Shown here piece after piece: positions 1,580 through 27,910 of a DNA stretch of 64,000 bases. Under the pieces are notes generated by a model, which was not told the DNA's origin, made no database searches, and saw only the letters and a program-made list of their open reading frames with translations. This DNA comes from Nitrospinaceae bacterium (GTDB lineage: Bacteria; Nitrospinota; Nitrospinia; Nitrospinales; Nitrospinaceae). Both the position numbers and the translations under genes were made by a program. The stretch covers positions 2,944,001 to 3,008,000 of the forward strand of contig OZ245011.1 in the NCBI GenBank assembly GCA_965223665.1. The letters run 5' to 3'. The first letter of the stretch is position 1. Every line of letters starts with the position of its first letter.

Positions 1580-1695
1580 CATTGAAGAACTGACCTGTTA
1601 TTCCTCTTCCTCTCCTCTAACACTACCTTATTTCGAATGAGGGATAGCAGGTCCTCTTAGATTTTTGAACGAATTTTATTTGAGGGATTTATCCA

Positions 1696-2985: not shown

Positions 2986-3001
2986 AAGGAAAGGGTTGGG
3001 T

Positions 3002-4117: not shown

Positions 4118-4227
4118 AATAAGAAAAATAAAACAGTAAGGCATTCTCGATTTCAATTTGCTGAACCTAGTAAGTCTCTTGTGCAGCCTTGCTCTTGATT
4201 TTGAAGGCTTTATTAAATTAAGGAGGC

Positions 4228-4806
4228 GTGATTATGTTTTTTAAATCCATTAAAAAAATTATAGGTATCACCATTTTTGTTTTATTTATTCCATTCGTTT
4301 CTATGGTTCAAGCAGAGGAAGTTGTGGCTTCGGCAGAAATTTTAGGCTGTACCGACAAAAGTATTACCGGAAAGGGTATGTTGGTAGAGCGTGAGTCTGA
4401 TGAAGGAATAAAACAAGTCGATGTGGCGTTATTTATCCGAGGATTGAAAGATGGAAAGCATGCAGTTCATGTGCATGAAACCGGAATGTGTACTCCTTGT
4501 AAAGCAGCAAAAGGGCACCATGATCCTGGTCCTAACAGTAATTCCAAACCCGATGCTCCAAATTTTAACCATCCTTTTCACATGGGAGACTTGGTAAATA
4601 TAGACGTAAAGGGTGGAATCGGTTTTATGCAAACTACGACTAATCGGTTTACCCTTTCAGATGGAAGGCTGAGTATCTTTGATAAGGATGGTGCATCCTT
4701 TATTATTCATTCTATGGAAGATAAATATTGTGACCATGAAGACGAGTTAAAAAAAGGGTGTGCCGGTGGAGCTAGAGATGCTTGCGGAATTATCAAGCGT
4801 CACTAA
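4228..4806 (+). CDS. sodC: Periplasmic Cu/Zn superoxide dismutase
   Basis: Signal peptide; HAVHVHE, GHHDP, HMGDL, FIIH and GARDACG metal-ligand and disulfide motifs. Confidence 0.88.
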   Translation: MIMFFKSIKKIIGITIFVLFIPFVSMVQAEEVVASAEILGCTDKSITGKGMLVERESDEGIKQVDVALFIRGLKDGKHAVHVHETGMCTPCKAAKGHHDPGPNSNSKPDAPNFNHPFHMGDLVNIDVKGGIGFMQTTTNRFTLSDGRLSIFDKDGASFIIHSMEDKYCDHEDELKKGCAGGARDACGIIKRH

Positions 4807-4830
4807 AAATTTTGTTGATTGGCTCAAAAA

Positions 4831-4866
4831 GGAGCCGATTTGAAAATATCAATCGGTTCCTTTTTA
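4831..4866 (+). terminator. Intrinsic terminator after sodC
   Basis: GGAGCCGATT...AATCGGTTCC stem followed by TTTTTT. Confidence 0.7.
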
Positions 4867-4918
4867 ATAAAATGGGTATTAAAAATAAGTTAATCATTAG
4901 TTTTGGAAAGCGTTACAT

Positions 4919-6346: not shown

Positions 6347-6361
6347 AAAATAATACGAAAC

Positions 6362-8053: not shown

Positions 8054-8067
8054 ATAAGTTTTTAAGA

Positions 8068-9534: not shown

Positions 9535-10033
9535 GTATCCTCTCTTAACTCAGCCTTAACCATAGAAGATTGTAATAAGTTTTTTCTCTGGAAAATCTGA
9601 GGGCCAATTATCGCATAAAAAGGAATAATCCTGAGAGATAATTCCCTATTTTTCTAATACTTTGAAATTAATAGGATTTACCAATGGATTATTTTCTATC
9701 GCTTAAGTTCCTAAATCCTAAAAGTAAGATCTTTTAAAAAAAACCATTTTCAGATTCAAATAAAAATTATACCTTTGGGAAAAATTAGGTATTTAAAATA
9801 TTTTTTATGGCACTAATTTTTATAACCCATTGATTTTTATATTTAATCTTCTATAAGATTGACTGTAATGTTGCATCCCCTAATTAAACAGCAAGATCAT
9901 TTTTAACAAAATTGTAACAAAAACTTCTTTTAATTTTTGTTTAAATGGGTTTATCTGGATTTATAGATACTTTCTCACCGGTATTTTTAATTTTGGTTGT
10001 TTTTCTTTAATAAAAACAAAAAAGATAATATTT

Positions 10034-10966
10034 ATGCCTAATCCCACCAAGTCACAATATAAAGTTTTGATAGTGGATGATACGAAAACTAATGTAGAAG
10101 TCTTAGTAGGAATTTTAGAATTTGAAGGATTTCAAACATATACTTCGTTTAATGGAAAACATGCACTGGAAATTTTAGATGAAATTCAACCTGATATCAT
10201 CCTTTTGGATATCATGATGCCAGGAATGAATGGGTTGGAAGTTTGTAAAAAATTAAAAGAGAATCCTATTTGGAAATACATTCCAGTAATTTTTATTACC
10301 GCTCTTTGTTCTCCACAAGATATTTCTAAAGCTTATGAGGCCGGTGGTGTGGATTATATTACAAAGCCCATTTGTCGGGAAGAAGTGATACATCGAATTA
10401 AAACTCAATTAGAATATGTGAGTTTATTTGAAAAGCAGCGAGAATTAATTGAAAAACTGGATACTATTGCTAAAACTGATCAACTAACCGGGTTACCTAA
10501 CCGGCGGCAGATGATCGAAAATATTAAGTATGAAGTAATTCGGTTTCAAAGAGGGGGGAAACCGTTTTCCATTGCAATTGGTGATATTGATGATTTTAAG
10601 AAAATAAATGATACCTATGGACATGCAGGCGGAGATTTTGTGTTAATAAAGGTGGCCGAATTTTTAAGAAAGGGATGTCGTGATCAAGATCTTGTTTGTC
10701 GCTGGGGAGGGGAAGAATTCTTATTATTGCTCCCTGAAACCGATGCCGCCGGGGCCTTTACTTTAGCGGAGAAACAAAGGGAAACCATTGCTAATGTTGA
10801 TTTGGAATTTGAGGGTAAACATCTGAATGTCACAATCTGCTTTGGAATAAGTACATTTAATCAAAAAGATCAGACCTATGAAGAATGTATAAGATTAGCG
10901 GATGATAGTCTTTATGCCGCAAAAGAAGGACAAAAAAATAAAGTTGTTGTTCACCAGCCTGTTTAA
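10034..10966 (+). CDS. Response regulator / diguanylate cyclase (REC-GGDEF)
   Basis: REC domain (LLDIMMP); DQLTGLPNRR, DIDDFKKINDTYGH, RxxD I-site (RDQD) and RWGGEEF. Confidence 0.93.
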   Translation: MPNPTKSQYKVLIVDDTKTNVEVLVGILEFEGFQTYTSFNGKHALEILDEIQPDIILLDIMMPGMNGLEVCKKLKENPIWKYIPVIFITALCSPQDISKAYEAGGVDYITKPICREEVIHRIKTQLEYVSLFEKQRELIEKLDTIAKTDQLTGLPNRRQMIENIKYEVIRFQRGGKPFSIAIGDIDDFKKINDTYGHAGGDFVLIKVAEFLRKGCRDQDLVCRWGGEEFLLLLPETDAAGAFTLAEKQRETIANVDLEFEGKHLNVTICFGISTFNQKDQTYEECIRLADDSLYAAKEGQKNKVVVHQPV

Positions 10967-16577: not shown

Positions 16578-17501
16578 ATGACCGAAGTCGCAGAAGAAGA
16601 AACTCAAGAAGTTTCCGAAGAAGTTCAGGAAGTTTCCAATGAAGTAAAAGAAGAAACCGAACCAGTTTCGAAAAAACCTTCAAAAAAATTGCTCATTATT
16701 GGAATTGTGGTTTTAGTTTTAATTTTGGGTACCTCTGTTTTCTTTTTATTTTCTTCTTCGGAAGATTCTACAGATTCTAACGAGGCCAATTCAGTTCAAG
16801 AAGACGAATATGTGACTCAAACAAAAGAATTCATTGCAGCGAAAGATTTAGAAAATGCTTTAAACGTTATCAAAACTCAACGCAAAGCTTCTCCCAAGAA
16901 CGTTGATTATGTTTATTGGGAGGGTTATGTAAATTATTTGTTTGATAGAAGGAAAGAAGCGTTTAGGCTGGCTCAAAATGCTGTGGAATTGGATGAAAAG
17001 AGGGGAGACGCACAGGCCCTGCTTGGCGCAAGTTTTCTTCTCTATGCAGATTATGAAAATGCATTGAAACATTCTCGCAAGGCGCTCCAACTTGATCCCA
17101 ACATTGCAATGGGCTATTTGACCATGGGCGATATTTATTTAAAGCGCGGGTATTCTAAAAAAGGGTTAACCATCTTAAAAGCTGCAGGGCGGTTAGATCC
17201 TAAAAATCCTAAAATTTGGGTTTTGCTCGGTTCGGCTTTTTTAAAATTGGGTAACCTGGAAAACGCGTTGGAAGCGGCAAAAACTGCCGTGAAATTAGAT
17301 CCTAAGTCTGCAGGAGCTCATTTTAATTTGGGAATGGTTTATTTAAAAAAAGAAGACGCTTCGCGCGCCCTGTACCATGTTCAAACTGCTGAAATCCTTT
17401 TTACAGAAGCTGAAAATACCGCTTGGGTTGCCAAAGCTCGCCATAATAAAGATTTTATTTTAAAAAAATATAAATTGCGGGCTGAAGATATTTTTCAGTA
17501 A
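16578..17501 (+). CDS. Membrane-anchored TPR protein
   Basis: Acidic N-terminus, one TM helix and several TPR repeats (ALQLDP, AVKLDP, AHFNLG). Confidence 0.85.
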   Translation: MTEVAEEETQEVSEEVQEVSNEVKEETEPVSKKPSKKLLIIGIVVLVLILGTSVFFLFSSSEDSTDSNEANSVQEDEYVTQTKEFIAAKDLENALNVIKTQRKASPKNVDYVYWEGYVNYLFDRRKEAFRLAQNAVELDEKRGDAQALLGASFLLYADYENALKHSRKALQLDPNIAMGYLTMGDIYLKRGYSKKGLTILKAAGRLDPKNPKIWVLLGSAFLKLGNLENALEAAKTAVKLDPKSAGAHFNLGMVYLKKEDASRALYHVQTAEILFTEAENTAWVAKARHNKDFILKKYKLRAEDIFQ

Positions 17502-17561
17502 CCTCTTTCCAGGTAACTGGGTTAAAATTCTATTTTTACGAATACTAATGGAATCCACCCA

Positions 17562-17900
17562 GTGACTGAAAATAACCAACCGAATAAATTTCAGGTAAAA
17601 CCTCCACCCACCGACCCGGCTGAAATTCATTTTAAAAATGCCTGGCAACATCGTAAAAATAAACAATTTGCTGAAGCAGTAGAGGAATTTTTAAAATCGT
17701 TGCAATACCAACCGGATAAAGCCGCCACCCATTTTAATTTAGGAATTGTCTATGATGAACTGGGAAAGGGGGTTGAAGCGGTTCAACATGCTACAAAGGC
17801 CGAAGTTTTATTTTTTAAGGAAGGTAAAGAATCAAATATTAAAACGGCCACTAAATTCTTAAAAAAACTAAAAAGAAAATATTCAAATACTAGCGATTAA
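17562..17900 (+). CDS. Small TPR protein
   Basis: AEIHFKNA...THFNLGIVY TPR motifs. Confidence 0.75.
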   Translation: MTENNQPNKFQVKPPPTDPAEIHFKNAWQHRKNKQFAEAVEEFLKSLQYQPDKAATHFNLGIVYDELGKGVEAVQHATKAEVLFFKEGKESNIKTATKFLKKLKRKYSNTSD

Positions 17901-19304
17901 CTATTTAGTTTTAGAGCGCCACTCTTTTAAAGAACGCGTGATTTGAGCCAGGACTTGTTTTTTAGCCGTACCCCCATAGACGTTTTTTCTTTGAACAGAA
18001 TTTTCCAAGGAAATGTAATTAAAAATATCTTTATCAAACTTATTGGAAATGGTTTGTAGTTCTTTTAACGTCAAATCTTCTAATGTACGTTTTTGGTTAA
18101 TGCAATAAGCGACAGTTTTTCCCGTAATTTCGTGGGCGTTGCGAAAGGGAATATTTTTTAGAACCAAATAGTCTGCCAAATCCGTTGCCGTTAAAAACCC
18201 GCTATTAATTAAATCTGCTTTGGGAATTTTTTTGAATACTGCGGTACTTAACATTCCAGCGAACACTTCCAAAGATATTTTAACTGTATCGACCATATCG
18301 AATAAGGGTTCCTTGTCTTCCTGCAAATCTTTGTTGTAGGCCAGAGGTTGTCCTTTCATCAAGGTCAAAAGTCCCATTAAATGTCCATAGACACGACCGG
18401 TTTTACCTCGGATCAGTTCGGCGGCATCGGGATTTTTCTTTTGCGGCATAATACTGGAACCTGTTGTGAAAGCATCCGACAATTCTAGAAATGCGAACTC
18501 GCTGGTACACCACAGGACAATTTCCTCACAAAATCGGCTTAAATGCATCATAAGTAAGGAAGCGGCAGAACCAAACTCTACAATAAAATCCCGGTCACTG
18601 ACGGAATCCAAACTGTTGTGCGTCACTTTAGGGAATTTTAGCAATTTTGCGGTGTGCTTTCGGTCGATGGGGAAATTAGTTCCCGCTAAAGCCGCAGCTC
18701 CTAAAGGCAAAACATTGACCCGGTTCAAAACATCATTCAAGCGGTCACGATCACGCGCCAGCATTTCAACATAAGCCATTAAATGATGAGCCAGCAAGAT
18801 GGGCTGCGCCCGTTGTAAATGGGTATAACCGGGAATGATGTGATTGATATTTTTTTTCGCCAGTTGTATTAGTATGTTTGCCAACTCTTTGAGTAATTTT
18901 TGAATTTCTTTGATTTGATCTCGAAGGTACAACCGGATATCCAGTGCAACCTGGTCGTTACGACTTCTTCCGGTATGCAATTTACCGCCAACGGGTCCAA
19001 CTAATTGGATCAATCGGTTTTCGATATTCATATGAATATCTTCTAAATCTTCTCGAATTTGAAAACTTCCTTCTTCGAATTCTTTTAAGATTTTCTTTAA
19101 ACCTTGGGAAATCTTTTTTGCTTCCGCCGGTTTTATAATTTTACATTTTGCCAATGTTTGACAATGGGCCAGGCTCCCCTGAATATCATAGGCATACAAC
19201 CGACGATCAAAGAATATAGAAGCAGAAAACCGGATCATTAAATCATCAGTACTTTCCTGGAACCGACCGCTCCAGGGTTTTTTAGTTTTTGTTTTTTTTG
19301 CCAT
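17901..19304 (-). CDS. argH: Argininosuccinate lyase
   Basis: [36 protein letters not shown] and YNKDLQEDK. Confidence 0.97.
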
Positions 19305-19405
19305 GAATCAAAAGAAGTTAAATAATTAATTAGAGTGGATTGTACTTCGGGTTGGATACAAACAACAACCAGAAATTATCAAAAGGTCTTTATTTAATGA
19401 TAATT

Positions 19406-20530
19406 TTAGGAGCTTTTCCGCCATTTGTCTTTAGGAACAATATTAACATGAACTTTTTCAGGAAGAACATGTGCTAAAAAATCAAGGTACCAGGCTTGAA
19501 TATTGGGGCAACCCGCACTGCCATTACGCCAATCAAAGTTTTTTTTCACAAATTCATTTGATTTGGAAACATTGACCCCATGGATTCCATAGCTTCCTCT
19601 TATAGGAGCCCCTAATTTTTTCAATCCTAACCACCAGTAACCTATTTCATGATCCGGATCGCCAAATGGGATGACACGTACTTTAACTCGACCCTCCACC
19701 CTTTCTTTTTTATACCAGGTAGGTTTATAAATTTTATTTTTTATTTCATATTCTCCAATAGGGGTTTCTTCCCCTTTGCGCCCAAATATAGTTTCAATTT
19801 CCATTAAATGTTCATTATTGTAGTAAATGTTAAGCATTCCCGTTTCCAGAATACCTACCAAATACCAAAGGTCGGGATTTTGGGAATACTCTCCAATTTT
19901 TCTTCCGTCGTAAATCAGCTGTATGGTAGATTCCGTATTATAATAACTGGTACGGGGGTCATTATAAATTTGTTTCACAATGTATTTTAAGTTTTTAGTT
20001 AATTCATTATTTTTTATAAGACGATCCACCATTTGCACTAATTCTTTATATTCCTTTTTCGTTTTCTTTAAACTTTTCTGAGTTTTTGCTAAGTGCTGTT
20101 GAATGGAATCGACTTTTTCCTGGGAAACCCAACCTAATTCCCTTAAACCCTCGTAATAAACCAGATCTATTTCAGTGCGCATTCCTTCCGTAATAAAAAA
20201 TTTGTAAGTAACAAAACCCCCAAAAATTAAAGTTCCGAGAACTAATGCAGAAGCCTTCAGGGTATTTTTCATTTTGTTAGAAATTTTATACCGGGCCACT
20301 TCAAGCTTTACTTTTTTTCCTTTTTCTTCCAGGGCCGAAAACTTGGCGTAACGAAATTTTTTGAAAAGTTTAGTTTCTAATCTGGAAAGAAAGGTATGGG
20401 ATTGTTCCAATTTGTTGATCACTGCATATAAATTCTCACGGGTTCGGCGGTCGTAACTTCCCTGAGGATCTTTGTTGGCAATTAGATTATATTCAGTGAC
20501 ACTGAGGACTTTAAGTTTTTTGGCATCCAT
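19406..20530 (-). CDS. Membrane-anchored L,D-transpeptidase (YkuD domain) with an unrecognised cytoplasmic N-terminal domain and a coiled coil
   Basis: C-terminal ETPIGEY...PTW...YGIHG...GSAGCPN catalytic His/Cys motif; TM at ~aa 94-113; coiled-coil stretch at ~aa 135-180. Confidence 0.85.
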   Translation of the reverse strand: MDAKKLKVLSVTEYNLIANKDPQGSYDRRTRENLYAVINKLEQSHTFLSRLETKLFKKFRYAKFSALEEKGKKVKLEVARYKISNKMKNTLKASALVLGTLIFGGFVTYKFFITEGMRTEIDLVYYEGLRELGWVSQEKVDSIQQHLAKTQKSLKKTKKEYKELVQMVDRLIKNNELTKNLKYIVKQIYNDPRTSYYNTESTIQLIYDGRKIGEYSQNPDLWYLVGILETGMLNIYYNNEHLMEIETIFGRKGEETPIGEYEIKNKIYKPTWYKKERVEGRVKVRVIPFGDPDHEIGYWWLGLKKLGAPIRGSYGIHGVNVSKSNEFVKKNFDWRNGSAGCPNIQAWYLDFLAHVLPEKVHVNIVPKDKWRKSS

Positions 20531-20708
20531 GTAAACTTACTAACACCTATTTTGCGTGGAGACCTTCGTTAAATAATTTAATGGGATAGCTTTTTTTAAA
20601 AAGACAAATCAACTTTAAAGAAATAAATTGAATTTATTTCTAAATTATTCCCTGAGAATAAGAGCTAAAATATTAGTGGAATATTTGTATAGTTTAGCGC
20701 AATTAAAT

Positions 20709-21272
20709 TTAGCCTACACTAAATAATTGGCTGACCAGGCTCTTCCTGGGTTTGGGAACTTCCGGGATAAATTTGGGACGAAATTTACATTGCCCCTGGA
20801 ACAAGGCTCCCGGTTCGATTTTTATGGAAGGGGCTTTTAAATCACCCATTAACATTCCCGTAGGATATACTTTTACTTTATGACTTGCCTCAACATCGCC
20901 AACAATTTTTCCTTTGCAATAAAGGGACTTTGCATAGACATTGCCTCTTAAATTTCCGGGTTCGGTCAAAATAAATATTCCATTTACGGTAATATCTCCT
21001 TCATGTCGACCTTCCAGGCAAACATTGCAATTGAATTTTAAGGATCCCTCGCTTTGATGCTCTATAGGCAGCAATAAACCAAAATCTGCATTTTGGAACT
21101 TTTTATAAAGGCGGTTTTCTTTCCAACAAGTACCTTTTTTATAAGTCTCTAATTTTCTGATAATTCTAAATAATTTTTCACGAACACTTCTTTCGAAAAA
21201 TCCTTGAGGATCTTTATCAATCAAAAATTCATATTCTGAATGGGTGAGAACATTTAATTTTATTTTTTTCAT
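20709..21272 (-). CDS. Bactofilin (polymer-forming cytoskeletal protein) with N-terminal extension
   Basis: Beta-helix repeats EGSLKF...LEGRHEGDI...GKIVGDV...GDLKAPSIKIEPGALFQGQC; the N-terminal ~65 aa are homologous to those of the downstream transpeptidase. Confidence 0.88.
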   Translation of the reverse strand: MKKIKLNVLTHSEYEFLIDKDPQGFFERSVREKLFRIIRKLETYKKGTCWKENRLYKKFQNADFGLLLPIEHQSEGSLKFNCNVCLEGRHEGDITVNGIFILTEPGNLRGNVYAKSLYCKGKIVGDVEASHKVKVYPTGMLMGDLKAPSIKIEPGALFQGQCKFRPKFIPEVPKPRKSLVSQLFSVG

Positions 21273-21280
21273 AGGGGCTC

Positions 21281-22597
21281 TCAGCTAAAGTTGGTGGCAA
21301 TTTGGGAAATTTTTCCCATTAGGGGAGGTTTTTTGGCTGCCGTCAAATATTCCATGATAGTTTTTTCACCACTTTCCAGCGTGGGGCAGGTCTTATAATC
21401 AGATAGGATGGCCCGAGCCACCATATCCATACAACCACTTAAACCGGGATCCATTTTGTAAAATAGAGTCCCATGGTTGTTGGTTATATTAATGACTTTA
21501 TGGTTAGGTAAAGAGCTTAAAATATGAATACGTTTTTTTAACTGCTGATACTTATCTAAAGTTTCTAAATAATCCTTCAACATGTTTAAGGCATTGGGAA
21601 TTTCTGATGGATTTTGTCCTCGGTTAAAAATTATTCCCAGTTTTTTATTCTTTAAGGATTGAACAATAGCATTATGACCCTTTTGGGCTGTCAATTGGGT
21701 GACATAATTTTTGTCCAACCCGGTTAGCTTCCCTGTCTGAAAGTCGGCCAAAAACTCTTCATAATAATCAATGAAAGAATGTAGTGCATCAATACTTCCA
21801 TTAATGGCAATATTGTTACTCAAATCAAAAACAAATATTACCTGATCGATTACATTCATTAATGAAGATAAATGGTTGATGCCTCCCGCAGGAGTGTCTA
21901 AAACCACATATCGGAATCTATCAAATACAGAATTCAAAAATTCTAGAAACAGTAGTAAATACTCCGGTTCATTGATCCGTTTGCGATGTCCTCGTTTTCC
22001 TAAAACAGGAACTTCCCCGCCAATGATAGAGAAATCGTATTCTTCAATAAAATTAATATATTCTTGAACCATAGGGCGGGAATTGTGTTCTGCCTGTTTA
22101 AGGATTTTTCGTAAAGCCGGCAGGTCAATATTTTTCAGAAGGGGTTTCAGTTTTTTGATTTCCGGAATACTGTGTATGTTTCCTCGACTCAGAAACAATT
22201 CATAAGCGGCTAAACCTTCCTTATATTCCATATGTTGGAACAATTCAGTTTTTAATGTTTTGAATAAAACAAAAGCCTTCTGTAATTTTTTATTGCGACC
22301 TTGAATTTCTCCCTCTAAATAGGCATTGAACCAGGTAACGATTTGATAAAGATTCCGCAAAAAATCGATTTGATAGGTTTTGTTTGCCAGAGTCTCAAAT
22401 AAATTATAAAAAGTTTTTCGTGGATGGCAGTCCAATAAACTTGTAATGGTGGGCAATCGCAAATCTAAATCCACTAAACAAATTTGTTTTTTAGGTGTTT
22501 TTTTTCCTAATAGTTGAGTGAGTGCGGCGGTGGTATTGATGGAAAGAGTGGTTTTTCCAATTCCTCCCTTGGGACCTACAATAGAAATAATTGGCAT
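21281..22597 (-). CDS. Orphan ParA/MinD-family ATPase with large insertions
   Basis: Deviant Walker A GPKGGIGKTT, LVDLD, Walker B VVLDTPAG and IIFNR; 438 aa, much longer than a canonical ParA. Confidence 0.85.
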   Translation of the reverse strand: MPIISIVGPKGGIGKTTLSINTTAALTQLLGKKTPKKQICLVDLDLRLPTITSLLDCHPRKTFYNLFETLANKTYQIDFLRNLYQIVTWFNAYLEGEIQGRNKKLQKAFVLFKTLKTELFQHMEYKEGLAAYELFLSRGNIHSIPEIKKLKPLLKNIDLPALRKILKQAEHNSRPMVQEYINFIEEYDFSIIGGEVPVLGKRGHRKRINEPEYLLLFLEFLNSVFDRFRYVVLDTPAGGINHLSSLMNVIDQVIFVFDLSNNIAINGSIDALHSFIDYYEEFLADFQTGKLTGLDKNYVTQLTAQKGHNAIVQSLKNKKLGIIFNRGQNPSEIPNALNMLKDYLETLDKYQQLKKRIHILSSLPNHKVINITNNHGTLFYKMDPGLSGCMDMVARAILSDYKTCPTLESGEKTIMEYLTAAKKPPLMGKISQIATNFS

Positions 22598-23305
22598 TTA
22601 ATTTGACCCCTCTGACTTGATTTTTGTAGCCCCTGCAATGACCAAAGTAATTTCCCCTTTCCATTTTTTAGATTTAGTTTGTTGAATGACTTCTTGCACC
22701 GATCCTCGAATCACTTCTTCATGCATTTTGGTTAATTCACGGGTAACGGCAATTTGTCGTTCTCCAAAAACTTCTGCAATTTCTTCTAGAGTTTTTTGAA
22801 TCCGTTGAGGGGATTCAAAAAGCACGACCGAAGCGGAATGTTGAGCTAAGGTTTCCATTGTTTTTCTTCGTCGTTTTTTTCTCGGCAGAAAACCGGCAAA
22901 AACAAATCGGTCAACCGGAAGACCTGAAACAATCAATGATGCCAAAACCGCTGATGGTCCTGGCAACGGGTAAACCGGAATCCCGTTATTAATTGCTAAT
23001 TGAACTAATTGATATAGTGGATCTGATACCCCGGGTGTACCTGCGTCTGAAACTAAGGCAACATTTTGCCCCTCTAGCAAATTGCGAATTATTACAGGTC
23101 CTTTTTTTATTTGGTTATAACTATTATAACTGGAAAGGGGCGTGGAAATATCATAATGGTTTAATAGAATTCGAGTGCGCCTCGTATCTTCCGCTGCAAT
23201 TAGTTGCACTTCCCTTAAAGTTTCCACGGCGCGATAAGTGATGTCTCCCAGGTTGCCAATGGGAGTACTCACAATAAAAAGCGAGCCCTTTTCATTTTTT
23301 AGCAT
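22598..23305 (-). CDS. rsmI: 16S rRNA C1402 2'-O-methyltransferase
   Basis: TPIGNLGDIT, AAEDTR, SDAGTPGVSDP, FESPQR and RELTKMHEE. Confidence 0.95.
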   Translation of the reverse strand: MLKNEKGSLFIVSTPIGNLGDITYRAVETLREVQLIAAEDTRRTRILLNHYDISTPLSSYNSYNQIKKGPVIIRNLLEGQNVALVSDAGTPGVSDPLYQLVQLAINNGIPVYPLPGPSAVLASLIVSGLPVDRFVFAGFLPRKKRRRKTMETLAQHSASVVLFESPQRIQKTLEEIAEVFGERQIAVTRELTKMHEEVIRGSVQEVIQQTKSKKWKGEITLVIAGATKIKSEGSN

Positions 23306-23444
23306 ACAGGCTAATTTTACAGGGTCCCTGAGCTAAACTCAATAAATTATTGATATAATTAGCGTTATAATTTATTTCACAAAAAAAGGACCTTAAAGCC
23401 AATATCTGCTCGCCAGTCCCTTTTAGGTATTTATTCGATAATAT

Positions 23445-23858
23445 TTAGCCTAATGCTTCTTTTTCCGAGTCTCCCGATTCATCTTTCATCAAATTAATGA
23501 TCTTTTTTTCTTTTGGAACCATGTTACATTGGCCATCCAAAACGGCTCCCACCTCAACGAATAAAGAAGGGGTATTAACGTCACCAATGACTTCGCTATT
23601 AGAATAAATTTCAACACGTGTTGCGGCATTGATAGAACCTTTAATTTTTCCTTTACAAATTACAGTTCCCGCTGTGATATTGGCTTCTAGAACTCCCTTT
23701 TCTCCAACAATTAATGTGTCCTCCGTTTTAACTTCTCCCTCTAAGGTTCCGTCAACTCGAACTGCACCCGCAAAAGTGAGCGATCCTTTAAAAACCGCAT
23801 CTTCACCCATATAGGCTTTTATATCTTTAATATTTTCGTAATCTTTTTTGCTTCCCAT
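23445..23858 (-). CDS. Bactofilin (canonical short form)
   Basis: YMGEDAVFKGSLTF...VRVDGTLEGEV...IGDVNTPSLFVEVGAVLDGQC; start likely MGSKK (23858), after a G-rich RBS. Confidence 0.9.
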   Translation of the reverse strand: MGSKKDYENIKDIKAYMGEDAVFKGSLTFAGAVRVDGTLEGEVKTEDTLIVGEKGVLEANITAGTVICKGKIKGSINAATRVEIYSNSEVIGDVNTPSLFVEVGAVLDGQCNMVPKEKKIINLMKDESGDSEKEALG

Positions 23859-23920
23859 AATAAAATTCCCCCCCGCCGACACATTCGGTAGAAAATTTGT
23901 TTCAAATTGTTTTTGGTTAT

Positions 23921-24784
23921 TTATTTACCCATTATAATATCACGAATTCTCGTTAAGTCATCATTAGAATAGTAAGAAATCAATAACTTACCTCCTTTTT
24001 TTGCTGGATGGATGGTTACTTTGGTTCCTACCTTCCTTTCCAATTCGGTTTCTAAAGATTTGATAAAAGCGTCTTTATGGGCAATTGGTGTGGCGGGTTT
24101 TTCCTTTTCGGGTCTCTTTAAGTTTTTTACTAAATTTTCTACCTGTCGCACGTTTAGTGACTGTTTAATTACAGCTAAACGGGCCTCTTCCATTTCTTTT
24201 TCTGTTTCTAAAGCCAAAATTGCCCTTGCATGTCCCATTGTTAATCGGCCGGAAACTAAATCTTCTTTAAAAGAATGAGAAAGTTTTAGTAACCGTAAAT
24301 AATTGGCGATGGTTGCTCGATTTTTTCCTACTTTTTTGGAAATGGCTTCCTGGGTGAGTCCAAATTCATGTGCCAGTTGATGATAGGCTTCTGCTTCTTC
24401 TATCGGATTTAAGTCTGCACGATGAATATTTTCTATAAGGGCTAATTGTAAAGACTCTGTGCTGCTGACTTCCCGAATCACAGCGGGTATTTTTTTTAAT
24501 CCCAGTTTTTTACAAGCACGCCATCGCCTTTCTCCACAAATCAACTCAAATTGGTTTTCTGCTTTTTGAACCACCACGGGTTGGATAATTCCATTTTCTT
24601 TAATGGAATCCACCAATTCCTGAAAAGGCTCATCTTCAAATTGTTTTCTGGGTTGATTGGGGTTGGGTGATATTTCATCGACCAATAATTCAGTAAGTCC
24701 CTCCTTGGCTTCGGTTTCTGTGATTCCCATTTCAAAATCAGGAATCAGGGCGTTGATCCCTTTTCCAAGTGCTTTTCGATTCAC
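23921..24784 (-). CDS. parB: Chromosome partitioning protein ParB/Spo0J
   Basis: ALGKG N-terminal ParA-activating motif, PNPNQPRK, GERRWRA, ENIHRADLNPIEEA and an HTH. Confidence 0.96.
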   Translation of the reverse strand: MNRKALGKGINALIPDFEMGITETEAKEGLTELLVDEISPNPNQPRKQFEDEPFQELVDSIKENGIIQPVVVQKAENQFELICGERRWRACKKLGLKKIPAVIREVSSTESLQLALIENIHRADLNPIEEAEAYHQLAHEFGLTQEAISKKVGKNRATIANYLRLLKLSHSFKEDLVSGRLTMGHARAILALETEKEMEEARLAVIKQSLNVRQVENLVKNLKRPEKEKPATPIAHKDAFIKSLETELERKVGTKVTIHPAKKGGKLLISYYSNDDLTRIRDIIMGK

Positions 24785-25584
24785 GATGATTGATCCATTA
24801 TGGTTAAAGGTTTATTGAAGGGTTTGGAGCGGGCAATAATTTCTTTGGCTAATTCCACATAAGAGTCTGCTCCACTGGAACGATTGTCGTAAAGAATAAC
24901 CGGCTTTCCATGACTGGGTGCCTCGCTCAAACGAACGTTTCGAGGAATAACTGTTTCAAGAAGATTTTCTTTGAAATATTTTTTAACCTGTTCATGAACT
25001 TGAGCTGCCAAACTGGTACGCTTGTCATACATGGTTAATAGAATGCCTTCTATTTTTAAATCAGGATTGAAGGAATGTTTGACCAACTTGAGAGTTTTCA
25101 TCAAATGGCTCAACCCCTGAAGCGAGTAATATTCGCATTGCATAGGGATTAGTACCGAACGCGACACGTTTAAAGCATTTAAAGTTAGCAATCCTAAAGA
25201 GGGTGGGCAATCTATCATGACAAAGTCATAATAATTTTCTATGCCATTTAGGGCTAATTTTAATTGAGACTCCCGATTCTCCTGACTCACCAATTCAATT
25301 TCGGCTCCGGCCAAATCGACAGTTGCAGGAACCAGCTTCAGAGTTTCGACTTCCGTTTCATGGGTGACTTGATCCAAACTTGTTCTTCCCAAGAGCAAAT
25401 CATAGGTTCCCTTTCCTCCTTCTGGCAAACTCACTCCTAAACCACTGGTTGCGTTGCTTTGAGGGTCCATATCGATTAGAAGAACATTTTTTCCTGTTGT
25501 AGCTAGGCAAGCAGCAAGATTTATGGACGTAGTGGTCTTTCCGACGCCACCTTTTTGATTAGCCACACTAATGATTTTCGCCAT
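24781..25584 (-). CDS. parA: Chromosome partitioning ATPase ParA/Soj
   Basis: NQKGGVGKTT, DMDPQ, IDCPPSLG, QCEYY and IPRNVRLSEAPSHG; start at MAKIIS (25584). Confidence 0.96.
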   Translation of the reverse strand: MAKIISVANQKGGVGKTTTSINLAACLATTGKNVLLIDMDPQSNATSGLGVSLPEGGKGTYDLLLGRTSLDQVTHETEVETLKLVPATVDLAGAEIELVSQENRESQLKLALNGIENYYDFVMIDCPPSLGLLTLNALNVSRSVLIPMQCEYYSLQGLSHLMKTLKLVKHSFNPDLKIEGILLTMYDKRTSLAAQVHEQVKKYFKENLLETVIPRNVRLSEAPSHGKPVILYDNRSSGADSYVELAKEIIARSKPFNKPLTIMDQSS

Positions 25585-25836
25585 AGAATTAATTGGAAGG
25601 GTAAAATAAAAATAAATTATCACAAAAAATGGAACTTTCCAATTCAATTCCCACGGCCCGCGGCCGGTGGGAACTTTTTAGTACCGATGATCGGCAATAA
25701 ACGCCGAACCCTCAGAAACTTTTCCTGAGTTGAACTTGTCTCTAGAGGAAAAGTAAATAATAAGAGGCGATATGTCCCTCCTTATAGAAATTATGGAGCA
25801 AAAATCAATAGATACAAGAGGGAAAGCCGATGTTCG

Positions 25837-26072
25837 CCCTCTTTCCTAAAGAGGGTCGGGGTGATTCACCTTCTGGGATTTTCCATTTTTGTGGTTACGC
25901 AAAGGTCTCTTTCATGAAGGGGGCTGGGGGGATTTTACCTTCAGGAGCTTTATGTTATCTGACTTACGCAAATGTCTCCTTTTTAAAGAGAACCGGGGTG
26001 ATTGATCGCCTGGGGTTTTGAAATTTTTCCAATTATACAAAGGTCTCTTTGGGGATCGACCTTTAGGGTTTA
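25837..26072. repeat. Degenerate tandem repeat, ~69-bp period, ~3.5 units
   Basis: TTACGCAAAGGTCTC (25895), TTACGCAAATGTCTC (25964) and TTATACAAAGGTCTC (26033) are exactly 69 bp apart. Each is followed by a CTCTTT...AAAGAG(G)...GGGG.GATT-type segment, truncated in the last unit. Confidence 0.8.
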
Positions 26073-26170
26073 TGAGTTAAGGGAAGAAAAATTTTCGAAA
26101 AATTTCAAATAATACCGTTTGCAAGCCAAAACATCTAAAATAAAATATTCCAACCGGCCGGGGGCCGGAT

Positions 26171-26186
26171 TGTTTCACGTGGAACA
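26171..26186. promoter_or_regulatory. parS: parS centromere-like site
   Basis: TGTTTCACGTGGAACA, one mismatch to the conserved parS palindrome TGTTTCACGTGAAACA; ~600 bp upstream of parA. Confidence 0.9.
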
Positions 26187-26242
26187 TTAACTAATTAAAT
26201 TGTGACTGGAAAAGGAAAAATTTATAAAGTTCTTTATTTCAG

Positions 26243-26899
26243 CTACTTTTTTTCGAAAACCAACATAAGCGAGAGTTTGCCCCCTATGTCTTTTATTCGA
26301 TTTTGGCTTTTTAAATGATACTTAGAATGCAAAGAAGTATTTTTTCCTTCACTTTCGATGGATCCTTTTTTGACTACGATAGTTCCGGATGTTTTTAGAA
26401 ATGGATCGGCGAGTTGTAAACACTCTTCCAGTCTCCCTACGGCTCTAAATAATACGCAATCATATTGTCCCTGGTGTTCCGCCAGATTTTGCAATTCCTC
26501 GGATCTTCCTCCATATACATGGGCTTTTTCCATTTCTAATTCCTTAATTACCAATTTTAAGAAATTGACCCTTTTTCTGCGGCTTTCTACTAAAAGTATC
26601 TCAAGGCAGGGAGAAAATATCTTGACAGGAATTCCTGGAAACCCCGGGCCACTACCAATATCCATAACTTTAAAATTTTCCTTTATATAAGGAAGGTATT
26701 GCAAAGAGTCGAAAAAGTGCTTTTCTAAAATGGATTGAACTTCTTTTTCAGACGTTAAATTATAAGTTCGATTCCATTTGCATAAAAGCTCCAGGTATTT
26801 CTGGGTTTGATCAATTATGGATGGGGTTAGATCTATTGGGAGTGATAAATTGGGATGATTTAAAGTAGAAAAAATTTGATCCTTGATGGGGGTCCGCAT
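26243..26899 (-). CDS. rsmG: 16S rRNA m7G527 methyltransferase (GidB)
   Basis: KWNRTYNLT, HFFDSL, DIGSGPGFPG, VESRRKR and FRAV; upstream of parA. Confidence 0.93.
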   Translation of the reverse strand: MRTPIKDQIFSTLNHPNLSLPIDLTPSIIDQTQKYLELLCKWNRTYNLTSEKEVQSILEKHFFDSLQYLPYIKENFKVMDIGSGPGFPGIPVKIFSPCLEILLVESRRKRVNFLKLVIKELEMEKAHVYGGRSEELQNLAEHQGQYDCVLFRAVGRLEECLQLADPFLKTSGTIVVKKGSIESEGKNTSLHSKYHLKSQNRIKDIGGKLSLMLVFEKK

Positions 26900-26914
26900 G
26901 GAGAGACGGCCTAT

Positions 26915-27910
26915 TTATTTTCCGATTATTTTTTTTATTTCTTGAGTAAGAGATGGCAAGACTTCTAAAACATCTCCAATAATACCATAATCGCAAACAT
27001 CAAAAATAGGTGCGTTGGAATCACTATTGATTGCAACAATACATCGGGAAGAAGACATGCCTGCCAAATGCTGCACCGCTCCAGAAATCCCACATGCAAT
27101 GTACAAATCTGGGCTAACGGTTCGGCCCGTTTGACCGACCTGGTTGGAATAGTTTCGCCATCCATTATCAACAACGGGACGGCTTGCTCCCACAGCGCCT
27201 CCCACCACTTCCGCTAATTCCTCTAGAAGTTTGAAATTTTCAGGACCCTGCATGCCCATTCCTCCGGAAACTATAATACGTGCTTCAGTGATATCTAATG
27301 TTTTACCCGTTTCCTTTCTGATTTCTTTTAAAATACCCCCCAATTGCGATTCTTGAATATGATCCACCTCAAACTTTTGGATATTAGGAGTAGATCCTGA
27401 GTCCATATCTTCAGTTCGGAAAATATTAGGACGTAGAGTTGCAATATAGGGTCCGTCTCCTTTAAAAACCAAAGTTGAAATGGCTTTTCCAGCATATATG
27501 GGTCGCTTAACTACAAGCCCCTTTGAATCATCATATCCTAATGAAATACAATCCGTCGCTAAACCACAATTTAATTCACCGGACAACCCGGCAGCAAGCT
27601 CTTTACCATGATTAGTGGCTCCCAATAAAATGGCGTATGGATTTCTTTCTTTTATTATTGGAGTAAGAGCAGCAAGGTAAGTTGAGTTGGTAAAAGACTG
27701 TAAGTTTTCATTTTTTAGCTGGATTACCTGGTCTACAGGAAGTTCAGATACTGCCTGATCCAAAGGAGTATCACTTCCACAACACACTACAGCCGTCAAA
27801 GTACTACCCAATTCAGATTTTAGTTTTAACGCTCCTTGAATCGATTCTTTGGAAATTGATTTAATTTCGGAATCACTGTGTTCGATAATGATCCAAATAT
27901 CTTTATTCAT
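26915..27910 (-). CDS. etfA: Electron transfer flavoprotein alpha subunit
   Basis: RPIYAG, IIVSGGMG, GASRPVVD, QVGQTG, GISGAVQHLAGM and AINSD...APIF. Confidence 0.95.
   Translation of the reverse strand: MNKDIWIIIEHSDSEIKSISKESIQGALKLKSELGSTLTAVVCCGSDTPLDQAVSELPVDQVIQLKNENLQSFTNSTYLAALTPIIKERNPYAILLGATNHGKELAAGLSGELNCGLATDCISLGYDDSKGLVVKRPIYAGKAISTLVFKGDGPYIATLRPNIFRTEDMDSGSTPNIQKFEVDHIQESQLGGILKEIRKETGKTLDITEARIIVSGGMGMQGPENFKLLEELAEVVGGAVGASRPVVDNGWRNYSNQVGQTGRTVSPDLYIACGISGAVQHLAGMSSSRCIVAINSDSNAPIFDVCDYGIIGDVLEVLPSLTQEIKKIIGK

Follow-up and report, generated by a model that had tools for sequence, protein, structure and literature searches.

A cassette of one order of Nitrospinota encoding a MinD/FlhG-like ATPase, a bactofilin and a YkuD-family enzyme, with a modelled contact between the ATPase and the N-terminal domain of the enzyme

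Organization of the locus

The window, i.e. the whole stretch of 64,000 nucleotides that was analysed, carries on its minus strand three open reading frames that lie where the preliminary description had placed them and that encode an ATPase (438 aa), a bactofilin (187 aa) and a YkuD-family enzyme (374 aa). Along the minus strand the order is ATPase, then bactofilin and enzyme. These genes and their neighbours are as follows.

19406..20530, minus strand: bitopic YkuD-family enzyme, 374 aa, consisting of N-domain, basic linker, transmembrane helix, coiled coil and YkuD domain
20709..21272, minus strand: bactofilin with the shared N-domain at its N-terminus, 187 aa (ORF, Pfam)
21281..22597, minus strand: MinD/FlhG-like deviant Walker-A ATPase with a helical insert (ORF, Pfam, AF2, Foldseek)
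22598..23305, minus strand: rsmI-like methyltransferase, conserved upstream neighbour (ORF, Pfam)
23445..23882, minus strand: plain bactofilin Bac1, after parB; context (Pfam, locus comparison)
23921..25647, minus strand: canonical parA-parB; context (ORF, Pfam)

The rsmI-like gene is separated from the start of the ATPase gene by a 0-nt gap, and it was the upstream neighbour in 19/19 fetched loci having the ATPase. According to Pfam, the canonical ParA is encoded by its own gene at 24781-25647 and is distinct from the cassette ATPase. The parA-parB genes were found upstream in 17 of the 20 fetched loci, the linkage being missing in the other 3/20, and Bac1 was present in the same gene row in 17/20 loci.

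Domain architecture of the YkuD-family enzyme

The enzyme can be divided into the following parts.

19448..19837, minus strand: YkuD catalytic domain, residues 232-361, with invariant IHG and SAGCPN motifs (Pfam)
19838..20182, minus strand: periplasmic region, residues 117-231, helical or coiled-coil (weak matches of coiled-coil type in Pfam and the PDB)
20192..20248, minus strand: transmembrane helix, residues 95-113 (hydropathy)
20252..20329, minus strand: conserved basic juxtamembrane linker, residues 68-93 (alignment, charge count)
20330..20530, minus strand: shared N-domain, enzyme copy, residues 1-67, three-helix (BLASTP, AF2)

The YkuD family has a catalytic motif in which HG is followed by SxGC, contributing a His and a Cys. 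Pfam recognised this domain (PF03734) in residues 232-361 with 46.9 bits against a cut-off of 23.4, and the catalytic His and Cys, H317 of the IHG motif and C341 of the SAGCPN motif, were invariant in 16/16 enzyme orthologues and in a 36-sequence alignment. The look-alikes of the enzyme in Atlas were YkuD clusters, no solved relative was detectable in a PDB sequence search, and the LdtE equivalog scored 13 against a cut-off of 480. The enzyme may carry out 3-3 cross-linking, although its sequence does not distinguish this reaction from L,D-carboxypeptidase or protein-attachment activity.

Residues 95-113 form a single hydrophobic segment (mean Kyte-Doolittle 1.79) and are the only 19-mer above 1.6; the N-terminal flank contains 9 K/R vs 3 D/E and the C-terminal flank 3 K/R vs 6 D/E. 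By the positive-inside rule this charge bias places the N-domain in the cytoplasm, so that the single transmembrane helix and the cytoplasmic location of the N-domain that had been proposed earlier are both borne out. Among 36 orthologues the mean identity was 60% (pairwise) in the linker (9 K/R vs 3 D/E) and 51% in the coiled-coil region; the transmembrane helix, with 33% identity, was the least conserved part of the protein.

An N-terminal domain common to the bactofilin and the enzyme

The cassette bactofilin contains two parts.

20784..21056, minus strand: Bactofilin domain PF04519, residues 73-163 (Pfam)
21072..21272, minus strand: shared N-domain, bactofilin copy, residues 1-67 (BLASTP)

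The Bactofilin domain scored 76.1 bits in Pfam (cut-off 27.9) and 77.7 bits in a six-frame search of the genome. According to the available text of PMC12448750, a short N-terminal membrane-targeting peptide of the MFSKQAKS type is typical of bactofilins but not obligatory, and membrane-bound clients can anchor these proteins. No peptide of this type was found at the N-terminus of the cassette bactofilin, which has instead a folded domain of 67 residues.

BLASTP of the full proteins aligned residues 1-67 of the enzyme and 1-67 of the bactofilin without gaps (28/67 identical, 39/67 positive, E 4e-13), and the second-best segment gave an E of only 0.15, which indicates that the remainder of the two proteins is unrelated; the likeness first seen by hand, as well as its confinement to the N-termini, was thus reproduced. 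The N-domain of the enzyme was modelled by AF2 with a pLDDT of 84.3 and helices at residues 11-18, 28-43 and 50-59, and the shared domain is basic in character. Residues 1-67 of either protein had no match in Pfam, no NCBIfam family was matched, and a fold search of the PDB gave a best E of 3.5 with nothing at E<=0.001; no characterised family that would speak against a docking role, as suggested in the preliminary description, was therefore matched in these three collections.

Given its basic character, its three helices and the presence of parAB in the same gene row, the domain could also be a small nucleic-acid-binding or regulatory module of the helix-turn-helix (HTH) type with no role in protein docking. 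However, the PDB contains many HTH folds and the search (best E 3.5) matched none of them; moreover, the domain is fused directly to a membrane anchor in one protein and to a cytoskeletal polymer in the other, and it co-occurs with the ATPase. We therefore regard such a role as very improbable.

A profile of the two N-domain copies found exactly 2 sites in the window's own genome, and most related genomes proved to have a comparable pair of neighbouring copies; hence the likeness is not due to chance. Run against 1.84e9 representative proteins, the profile gave 55 matches at E<=1e-3, comprising 43 bactofilin-type or YkuD-type proteins or fragments and 12 unrelated beta-repeat proteins; among these 1.84 billion proteins the shared domain is limited to the two protein types. 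In a tree, the 38 enzyme-type copies formed one clade with support 100/99. The enzyme and bactofilin copies split once, before the order radiated, and have since diverged at unequal rates (mean identity 62% vs 43.5%), while both have the same fold core and a patch formed by G24, Y26, T30 and R31. The N-domain of the bactofilin is thus an old paralogue of that of the enzyme, located at the site usually occupied by the membrane-targeting peptide in many bactofilins.

Distribution and loss of the cassette

In a phylum sample of 120 Nitrospinota genomes, 74 contained the N-domain and 71 contained the ATPase; all of these belong to four families of one order, and both were absent from the genomes of five other families (0/18). 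By a hand tally of two result tables, 69 genomes contained both, 5 the domain alone, 2 the ATPase alone and 44 neither. The enzyme-type N-domain was found in 69 genomes, 68 of which also had the ATPase, and the sole exception was cut by a contig end. The three-gene cassette is specific to one order of Nitrospinota, and the synteny of ATPase, bactofilin and enzyme suggested by the single locus extends across the four families.

In 16 genomes belonging to 5 genera and 3 families the ATPase gene was followed by the enzyme gene with a gap too short for a bactofilin, a count tallied by hand from coordinates, four such loci having been seen directly among the fetched ones. These genomes lack the bactofilin copy and keep a fully conserved N-domain on the enzyme, and the retention of ATPase and enzyme without the bactofilin indicates that these two constitute the core pair. 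A bactofilin with the N-domain but with no detectable ATPase or enzyme was found in four genomes of two genera, where the domain was well preserved in two (G054 and G093) and diverged in the other two (G042 and G082), so that it can persist without the ATPase. Loss affects the cassette as a whole: four genomes without it retain rsmG-parA-parB-bac1-rsmI and argH, and rsmI lies immediately against argH in 1 of these.

These data bear on the possibility that the N-domain binds the beta-helical core of Bac1 or of the cassette bactofilin, the ATPase regulating the scaffold. The enzyme has an LmdC-like layout (cytoplasmic N-terminus, transmembrane helix, coiled coil, catalytic domain), Bac1 shares the gene row in 17/20 loci, and the bitopic wall enzymes described so far use their cytoplasmic N-terminal parts to bind the core of a bactofilin (available text of PMC12448750 and PMC10945521). 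Nevertheless, Bac1 is retained where the cassette has been lost, the enzyme goes with the ATPase and not with a bactofilin in its phyletic distribution, and recruitment in the known cases depends on short peptides or a beta-hairpin rather than on a folded three-helix domain, all of which make client binding of this kind quite improbable.

Sequence and predicted structure of the ATPase

The following features were delimited in the ATPase.

21284..21319, minus strand: C-terminal tail, residues 427-438, weakly amphipathic helix, candidate membrane-targeting sequence
21965..22000, minus strand: conserved basic loop GKRxHRKRINEP, residues 200-211 (alignment)
21998..22054, minus strand: modelled N-domain contact segment 2, residues 182-200, beta-hairpin IEEY...GGEVPxLG (complex model)
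22082..22411, minus strand: family-specific helical insert, residues 63-172, between switch I and Walker B (AF2)
22403..22435, minus strand: modelled N-domain contact segment 1, residues 55-65, LDCHPRKTFYN (complex model)
22547..22576, minus strand: deviant Walker A GPKGGIGKTT, residues 8-17 (invariant in 37/37 aligned homologues)

The Pfam families AAA_31, CbiA and ParA matched only the N-terminal ~70 aa of the protein. In an alignment of 37 homologues, from which all conservation values for the ATPase were taken, GPKGGIGKTT, the switch I aspartates in DLDLRLPT and the Walker B motif LDTPAGG were invariant or nearly so (37/37 sequences); the protein accordingly has the KGGxGK[ST] motif with the signature lysine and the switch I and Walker B aspartates of the MinD/ParA superfamily. 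The AF2 model (pLDDT 81.8) matched FlhG best in Foldseek (4rz2, E 4e-7, TMt 0.74), then FleN and MinD (1hyq). On the grounds of the invariant Walker A, DxD and Walker B motifs and of the FlhG/FleN/MinD-like fold, the ATPase looks catalytically competent. Named homologues all come from Nitrospinota. Both MinD proper (TIGR01968, 33 bits vs an equivalog cut-off of 212.9) and partition ParA (NF041546, 25.7 bits vs 180) were rejected as identities for this protein.

The insert of ~110 residues was modelled as helices at residues 63-94, 103-114, 126-136, 144-154 and 159-172, and a PDB sequence search left it unaligned with both FleN and MinD. G200, K201, H204, R205, R207 and P211 of the basic loop were invariant, and residues 200-209 were modelled as disordered (pLDDT <50). 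The helix at residues 429-436 of the C-terminal tail was predicted at low confidence; when all 11-mers of a protein were ranked by hydrophobic moment, the best one of the tail fell in the top 7% for 27/37 homologues but only in the top 14% for the copy in the window, in which membrane targeting by the tail is weak. The ATPase may associate with the membrane or the nucleoid.

Modelled contact between the ATPase and the N-domain of the enzyme

The complex of the ATPase, modelled as a monomer without nucleotide, with the N-domain of the enzyme obtained scores of 0.73, 0.00 and 0.76 in three runs (median 0.73), which express the confidence of a model and are not a measurement. The mark of the tool, which was reached by 58/80 solved complexes and by 2/110 mismatched pairs, was passed in 2/3 ATPase-enzyme runs, and the best of 3 controls scored 0.00. 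At least 8% of the contacts agreed between runs, and the partner pLDDT was at least 72. Since the N-domain has no fold match in the PDB (best E 3.5), the pass cannot be explained by a similar solved complex.

On the enzyme N-domain the modelled contacts involve residues 2, 5-6, 11-12, 14-16, 18-20, 24-30, 33-34 and 67. On the ATPase, 13/20 contact residues are at least 90% conserved vs 160/438 over the whole protein. In contact segment 1, L55, H58 and P59 are invariant and S57, K61 and D65 at least 90% conserved; in segment 2, E185, E186, E195, P197 and G200 are invariant. In the enzyme-type N-domains (n=38) the mean entropy was 0.49 at modelled contacts vs 1.46 elsewhere, and with polar positions only it was 0.55 vs 1.79 (one-sided Mann-Whitney p 0.0014). 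Because structure predictors tend to favour conserved patches, neither the ATPase nor the enzyme side of this comparison is fully independent of the complex score. In contrast, the same surface was not conserved in the bactofilin copy (entropy 1.78 at contacts vs 1.71 elsewhere, p 0.47), and within it only the central G24, Y26, T30 and L34 are common to that copy. The preliminary description had offered the N-domain as a common binding site for the ATPase; for the enzyme copy the modelling supports such a contact, with a model that passes its controls and places the contacts on invariant motifs of the ATPase and on the best conserved positions of the domain, but this support does not extend to the bactofilin copy, in which the modelled surface is not conserved.

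The same description had also suggested homotypic docking, in which the N-domain copies bind each other and so hold the enzyme on the bactofilin polymer. In such a scheme the bactofilin, having no membrane-targeting peptide, would in turn be held at the membrane, and the ATPase would act separately. The two genes are adjacent in most genomes, the fold core and the G24/Y26/T30/R31 patch occur in both copies, and the domain occupies the site of the membrane-targeting peptide of other bactofilins, which membrane-bound clients can anchor (available text of PMC12448750). Nevertheless, the 16 genomes described above maintain the ATPase and a fully conserved N-domain on the enzyme with no bactofilin copy to pair with, the conserved surface of the enzyme copy is not mirrored in the bactofilin copy, and the copies split once and early and evolved at unequal rates thereafter (62% vs 43.5% mean identity). 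Homotypic docking thus appears unlikely, if less so than the other alternatives.

Cytoplasmic ATPases control periplasmic wall hydrolases in systems of the FtsEX type, and by analogy an ATP-driven dimer of the ATPase might pair two N-domains and switch the YkuD domain through the transmembrane helix and the coiled coil. This mode of control would rest on the same modelled contact, and a conserved linker (60%) and the coiled coil (51%) lie between the N-domain and the catalytic domain. The transmembrane helix that would carry the signal is, however, the least conserved part of the enzyme (33% identity), and we know of no ATPase of the MinD/FlhG-type fold that acts in this way. We consider this explanation rather improbable.

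Discussion

Bactofilins and MinD/ParA-type ATPases are the main nucleotide-independent and nucleotide-dependent placement systems, respectively, of bacterial cells. Known wall enzymes reach bactofilins by short cytoplasmic peptides and, to our knowledge, no case has been described of a MinD-type ATPase that binds a wall enzyme directly, or of an enzyme and a scaffold having one folded domain in common. Our literature search found no paper that describes the shared N-domain cassette.

That the ATPase holds the enzyme by its N-domain, with the bactofilin as an accessory, in a lineage-specific cassette, is a reading for which we judge the chances to be evenly balanced. According to the complex model, the cytoplasmic three-helix domain of 67 residues would most likely be a handle gripped by the ATPase, and the grip site would lie on elements specific to this ATPase subfamily, namely residues 55-65 just after switch I and the hairpin 182-200 at the end of the insert. 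The ATPase would cycle with ATP, as other MinD/ParA-type ATPases do, and its cycle would govern the action of the periplasmic YkuD domain on peptidoglycan by setting the location or the oligomeric state of this domain, with a possible effect on cell shape. The bactofilin, whose copy of the domain may also bind the ATPase, would either link the ATPase-enzyme pair with the bactofilin scaffold or be a competitor of the enzyme for ATPase binding. The fuller version, in which the grip sets the place and time of an L,D-type wall chemistry and the diverged copy of the bactofilin competes or bridges, is put forward tentatively and seems to us doubtful as a whole.

The same layout is found in BacA-LmdC, a morphogenetic module of Hyphomonas neptunium and Rhodospirillum rubrum in which, according to the available text of PMC10945521, the bactofilin gene likewise adjoins that of a bitopic peptidoglycan enzyme and the cytoplasmic part of LmdC is the recruitment determinant. 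As in the BacA-LmdC and BacA-PbpC systems, the cassette bactofilin gene adjoins that of a bitopic, N-in enzyme, although 16 genomes have the enzyme and no such bactofilin. Compared with the BacA-LmdC module, the enzyme here is of the YkuD family instead of an M23 peptidase, and where LmdC has a cytoplasmic tail of ~38 residues that includes a beta-hairpin, it carries a folded 67-residue three-helix domain, of which the bactofilin has a second copy. In addition, the constant partner of the enzyme is a dedicated MinD-like ATPase, the bactofilin being dispensable in those 16 genomes. In Caulobacter crescentus, it is likewise the N-terminal cytoplasmic region by which the bitopic wall synthase PbpC is recruited, and a bactofilin can do without its membrane-targeting peptide when a membrane-bound client takes over that role; PbpC, however, binds the bactofilin core by a 13-residue peptide, BacA has the MFSKQAKS peptide where the cassette bactofilin has a folded domain, and the available text of PMC12448750 includes no ATPase in that system.

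The cassette ATPase resembles MinD, FlhG and FleN (1hyq, 4rz2, 5j1j) in its deviant Walker A with the signature lysine, its MinD-type fold (TMt up to 0.74) and its candidate C-terminal amphipathic tail, and differs from them in the ~110-residue helical insert and invariant basic loop, in the lack of a flagellar or MinCE context, and in having, according to the model, the folded domain of a periplasmic wall enzyme as its partner. FlhG binds distinct partners, the C-ring proteins and GpsB, which recruits PBP1, and this partner binding links the ATPase switch to sites of wall synthesis (available text of PMC12826062). In Myxococcus xanthus, too, bactofilins function together with ParA-type ATPases and parAB, with which they are also encoded (Lin et al. 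2017, via PMC12448750). There, however, the adaptor PadC links the C-terminal tail of the bactofilin to the chromosomal ParA and, in the available text of PMC12448750, no wall enzyme is involved, whereas here a separate ATPase subfamily is paired with a wall enzyme and the parAB linkage is absent in 3/20 loci.

If the modelled contact is real, the cassette would be a compact three-protein system for the coupling of a cytoplasmic ATP switch to periplasmic peptidoglycan remodelling. If the fuller mechanism were true, it would amount to a switch of partners, driven by nucleotide, from cytoskeletal scaffold to wall enzyme and back, and we know of no bacterium in which wall patterning by such a switch has been described. 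The parts of the cassette are small and tractable in a heterologous host, and, because some genera of the order have it and others do not, nature itself provides a comparison for wall chemistry and cell shape in Nitrospina-type nitrite oxidisers, which are important in the marine nitrogen cycle and whose cell biology is essentially unstudied.

Organization of the gene row

The ATPase, bactofilin and YkuD (L,D-transpeptidase family) genes of the cassette lie in this order on the same strand of the window, within the row of genes listed below.

Genes of the row, assigned by ORF and family annotation
26243-26899, minus strand, rsmG
24781-25647, minus strand, parA
23921-24784, minus strand, parB
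23445-23882, minus strand, Bac1, a plain bactofilin outside the cassette
22598-23305, minus strand, rsmI-type methyltransferase
21281-22597, minus strand, ATPase, 438 aa
20709-21272, minus strand, bactofilin, 187 aa, with the shared N-terminal domain (N-domain)
19406-20530, minus strand, YkuD protein, 374 aa, with the N-domain
17901-19304, minus strand, argH

The ATPase start follows the rsmI stop with 0 nt between them, and 8 nt separate the ATPase from the bactofilin start and 178 nt the bactofilin from the enzyme. An Rfam search detected no RNA elements at positions 17000-27000, and the promoter and terminator scan gave numbers near the shuffle expectation (26 versus 17.2 and 9 versus 7.2 expected) that were not used as evidence. 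The annotated starts of parA (TTG, 288 aa) and Bac1 (GTG, 145 aa) probably lie upstream of the true ones: alignment with orthologues begins at residue 22 in ParA (MAKIISV...) and at about residue 9 to 21 in Bac1.

The shared N-domain and the YkuD enzyme

BLASTP aligned the cassette bactofilin and the YkuD protein without gaps over residues 1-67 of each (28/67 identical, E 4e-13) and returned no significant segment beyond them. The preliminary description, which had two otherwise unrelated proteins sharing an N-terminal domain downstream of a same-strand ATPase, is therefore confirmed in every detail. Pfam matched residues 73-163 of the bactofilin to the bactofilin family and residues 232-361 of the enzyme to YkuD, and neither Pfam nor NCBIfam matched a family on the N-domain of either. 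The AlphaFold2 model of the N-domain, computed from a 71-sequence alignment (pLDDT 84.3), consists of helices 11-18, 28-43 and 50-59 and a small beta bridge; Foldseek found nothing in the PDB at E≤0.001 (best E 3.5) and a feature search of the ESM Atlas yielded nothing usable, so the N-domain falls in no characterised family covered by these searches. Its by-eye likeness to a LuxR-type helix-turn-helix (pattern LTxxEYxLI...KL) was rejected because the spacing is about 10 residues short and Foldseek found no such fold in the PDB; a nucleic-acid-binding role of the domain is highly improbable.

The enzyme contains only one hydrophobic helix (residues 95-113), with a strongly basic N-terminal flank (9 K/R versus 3 D/E) and an acidic C-terminal flank, which places the N-domain in the cytoplasm, as had been proposed, and the YkuD domain in the periplasm. 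The YkuD domain keeps its catalytic His and Cys without exception among orthologues, and judging from sequence the enzyme is probably active. Neither the single sequence nor a 16-sequence profile of the YkuD part identified a solved relative; the enzyme may form 3-3 cross-links, trim peptides or attach proteins.

Distribution of the N-domain and the ATPase

A profile of the two copies matched the window's own 4.35-Mb genome at the two places of the cassette only, and detected the N-domain in 49 of 61 relatives. In a sample of 120 genomes of the phylum Nitrospinota, 74 carry the N-domain, all within four families of one order (19/20 in f1, 5/5 in f4, 6/6 in f3 and 43/70 in f2, plus the window's genome), and the 18 genomes from five other families gave no match. 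The ATPase, present in 71 of the 120, is distributed over the same four families and was found in none of the other five. By hand tally, 69 genomes have both, 5 the domain only, 2 the ATPase only and 44 neither. The domain-only genomes retain just the bactofilin (G054 and G093) or a diverged bactofilin (G042 and G082), or are cut at a contig end (G080), and the two ATPase-only assemblies are 57% (G079) and 74% (G083) complete. Named ATPase homologues all come from Nitrospinota, including Nitrospina gracilis; their annotations read ParA family, BcsQ or tyrosine-kinase family.

When a 71-sequence profile built from 38 genomes was searched against 1.84 billion representative proteins, 55 matches were obtained at E≤1e-3. 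BLAST against the proteins of the window assigned 43 of them to the bactofilin or YkuD type, as proteins or fragments, each of at most 386 aa. The remaining 12 are long repeat proteins aligned at profile positions 5-25 only, and they were rejected as relatives: the N-domain is helical, and the three that were scanned fall into repeat families of all-beta fold (Phage_tail_C, SpaA). This search thus found the N-domain on two protein architectures only. Each of these 12 database proteins (within P0162-P0177) shows several matches to positions 5-25, with a motif like LTxAEYxALxxKDPxT, which we judge to be a short-motif coincidence and not homology.

The 72%-complete assembly G005, possibly a mixture of two strains, gave four N-domain and two ATPase matches, corresponding to two full cassettes on contigs C138 and C107. 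No gene of genome G000 (98.6% complete) reached the MinD equivalog cut-off (best 109.8 bits versus 212.9). Its YkuD genes include a second one near 1.70 Mb, and a 758-aa open frame near 0.41 Mb contains a third bactofilin domain.

The ATPase and the enzyme form the constant unit

Gene order was compared in 20 loci of 18 kb, hand-picked to span genera and single-copy cases and hence not random. argH was downstream in 20/20 and rsmI directly upstream of the ATPase in all 19 ATPase-bearing loci; the full trio occupied 15 of the 20, the ATPase was followed directly by the enzyme in 4, and the bactofilin stood alone between rsmI and argH in 1. The ATPase-bactofilin-enzyme order is thus kept in related genomes. 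The genes rsmG-parA-parB-Bac1 were upstream in 17/20, which indicates that linkage of the partition genes to the cassette is common, not obligatory. Four genomes with neither N-domain nor ATPase (93-98% complete, one to five contigs) retain rsmG-parA-parB-Bac1-rsmI and argH; rsmI abuts argH in one, and the other three have other genes or a gap in the slot. This joint presence and absence, with Bac1 retained, indicates that the three genes constitute a cassette kept or lost together. Large ORFs of 652, 877 and 1002 aa were observed in the rsmI-argH slot of two cassette-less loci, L053 (genome G024, 1209-8143) and L054 (G036, 4993-8808).

Sixteen genomes of five genera and three families (four of genus g4, seven of g15, and G022, G049, G081, G059 and G071) show the ATPase followed by the enzyme N-domain at a distance of 35-500 nt, which is less than the bactofilin gene of about 560 nt, so the bactofilin is absent from between them. 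Moreover, 68 of the 69 genomes with an enzyme-type N-domain also have the ATPase, the exception being explained by a contig end. The constant unit is thus the pair of ATPase and enzyme, with the bactofilin as an accessory lost several times. Homotypic docking of the two N-domain copies, one of the two roles put forward in the preliminary description, has the residues shared by both copies in its favour and these 16 bactofilin-less genomes against it, and we regard it as unlikely. Two genera keep the bactofilin with its N-domain and have no ATPase or enzyme, which shows that the ATPase is not required for the domain to be kept; their copies sit on long branches (1.07 and 1.6 versus a median of 0.071), which may reflect relaxed or changed constraint.

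Features of the ATPase

The AlphaFold2 model of the ATPase (pLDDT 81.8) shows a MinD-type core into which a helical segment (residues 63-172) is inserted; residues 200-209 form a disordered loop and residues 429-436 a low-confidence C-terminal helix. FlhG was its closest fold in the PDB by Foldseek (4rz2, E 4e-7, TMt 0.74), ahead of FleN, MinD and then NifH-type proteins. The protein scored far below the NCBIfam cut-offs of MinD (33 versus 212.9 bits) and partition ParA (25.7 versus 180 bits), and it therefore belongs to the superfamily, but is neither MinD nor partition ParA proper. Across 37 homologues the deviant Walker A GPKGGIGKTT, the motifs DLDLRLPT and LDTPAGG, and the basic motif GGEVPxLGKxxHRKRINxP are invariant or nearly so. 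The invariant basic loop GKRxHRKRINEP (residues 200-211; window 21965-22000, minus strand), modelled as disordered and adjoining the modelled contact hairpin, could bind membrane, DNA or the partner. The C-terminal tail is moderately amphipathic: among 11-mers it ranks within the top 7% for 27 of the 37 homologues, but the copy in the window reaches no more than the top 14%, so that membrane targeting of the ATPase is a possibility only.

Predicted complex of the ATPase with the enzyme N-domain

The ATPase and the enzyme N-domain, a pair chosen by the phyletic pattern, were modelled as a complex with own alignments for both. Three runs scored 0.73, 0.00 and 0.76 (median 0.73), and the best of three was 0.00 for the controls, two with unrelated partners and one with an unrelated protein replacing the ATPase. 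The mark set for this score is reached by 58/80 solved complexes and 2/110 mismatched pairs, rates that apply only roughly here because own alignments were supplied. As nothing solved resembles the N-domain, the predictor cannot have passed by reproducing a known complex. The score expresses the model's confidence and is not a measurement; of the domain-ATPase docking suggested earlier, the enzyme copy is thus predicted to dock, with one run in three dissenting.

The runs share at least 8% of their contacts, and the pLDDT of the partner is 72 or more. The modelled interface comprises ATPase residues 55-62, 64-65, 182, 184-187, 195 and 197-200 and N-domain residues 2, 5-6, 11-12, 14-16, 18-20, 24-30, 33-34 and 67. 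ATPase segment 55-62 comes after switch I and aligns with FleN residues 63-70, and segment 182-200 is the hairpin closing the family-specific insert. Conservation of at least 90% was found for 13/20 ATPase contact residues versus 160/438 of the whole protein, L55, H58, P59, E185, E186, E195, P197 and G200 being invariant and S57, K61, D65, I184 and L199 nearly so. The ATPase entered this model as a monomer free of nucleotide. With a bitopic enzyme whose cytoplasmic domain is predicted to meet the ATPase, activation of the enzyme across the membrane through ATPase-driven dimerisation comes into consideration, and we hold it to be rather improbable.

Divergence of the two N-domain copies

All 38 enzyme-type copies form one clade in a maximum-likelihood tree of 71 N-domains (support 100/99), which indicates that the duplication is older than the radiation of the order, with no homogenisation of neighbouring copies afterwards. 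Mean pairwise identity among enzyme orthologues is 62% for the N-domain, 60% for the basic linker, 33% for the TM helix, 51% for the coiled coil and 74% for the YkuD domain, and among bactofilin orthologues the N-domain (43.5%) exceeds the bactofilin domain (38%). One genus has a bactofilin frame of about 258-265 aa with the N-domain from about residue 78 (locus L040 of G029, 9350-10126, minus strand; protein P0137), either a real N-terminal extension or a start called too far upstream.

Column entropy at modelled contacts was compared with that of the other columns in the 38 enzyme-type and 33 bactofilin-type copies, labelled by gene context. The enzyme copy gave 0.49 at contacts versus 1.46 elsewhere, and 0.55 versus 1.79 when only polar columns were considered (one-sided Mann-Whitney p 0.0014), whereas the bactofilin copy gave 1.78 versus 1.71 (p 0.47). 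The hydrophobic core and P22, G24, Y26, T30, R31, K40 and E52 are at least 80% conserved in both copy types, with G24, Y26 and T30 lying in the middle of the modelled interface. In the enzyme copy alone, helix 1 and N15, R28 and N33 are fixed. For these shares, and for the tree, copies were sorted by a three-letter rule that placed one bactofilin copy, of locus L042, with the enzyme type. These data suggest a constrained surface that is strong in the enzyme copy and largely given up by the bactofilin copy, an asymmetry that fits the gene-presence pattern and whose test is not fully independent of the complex model, since predictors favour conserved patches. A common ATPase-binding site on both copies, the other role proposed in the preliminary description, is accordingly at best partly true: the complex model and the contact entropy speak for it in the enzyme copy, and the entropy of the bactofilin copy speaks against it.

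Relation to known systems and proposed mechanism

The nearest systems described are the bactofilin-client modules BacA-LmdC (PMC10945521) and BacA-PbpC (PMC12448750). The enzyme studied here has the layout of LmdC, but it belongs to another catalytic family, carries a folded domain instead of a peptide or hairpin, shares this domain in duplicate with its bactofilin, and has a dedicated ATPase as its constant partner. Binding of the N-domain to a bactofilin core, as for PbpC or LmdC, would suit the LmdC-like layout, and is quite improbable for a domain whose constant partner is the ATPase. The position held here by the N-domain is occupied in other bactofilins by a membrane-targeting peptide, according to PMC12448750, and FlhG connects to wall synthesis via GpsB and PBP1, according to a review (PMC12826062). 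We found no published description of an ATPase-bactofilin-YkuD module; the supplementary tables of PMC10945521 and PMC12448750 might list such bactofilins.

We propose, as a scheme with roughly an even chance of being right as a whole, that the ATPase binds and controls the YkuD enzyme via the N-domain and that the bactofilin copy links or competes. The ATPase would cycle with ATP like MinD/ParA-type proteins and bind the cytoplasmic N-domain of the bitopic enzyme, and the diverged N-domain of the bactofilin would either tie the ATPase-enzyme pair to a scaffold or compete for the ATPase. By binding the enzyme, the ATPase would set its place or oligomeric state and thereby where L,D-type peptidoglycan chemistry happens.
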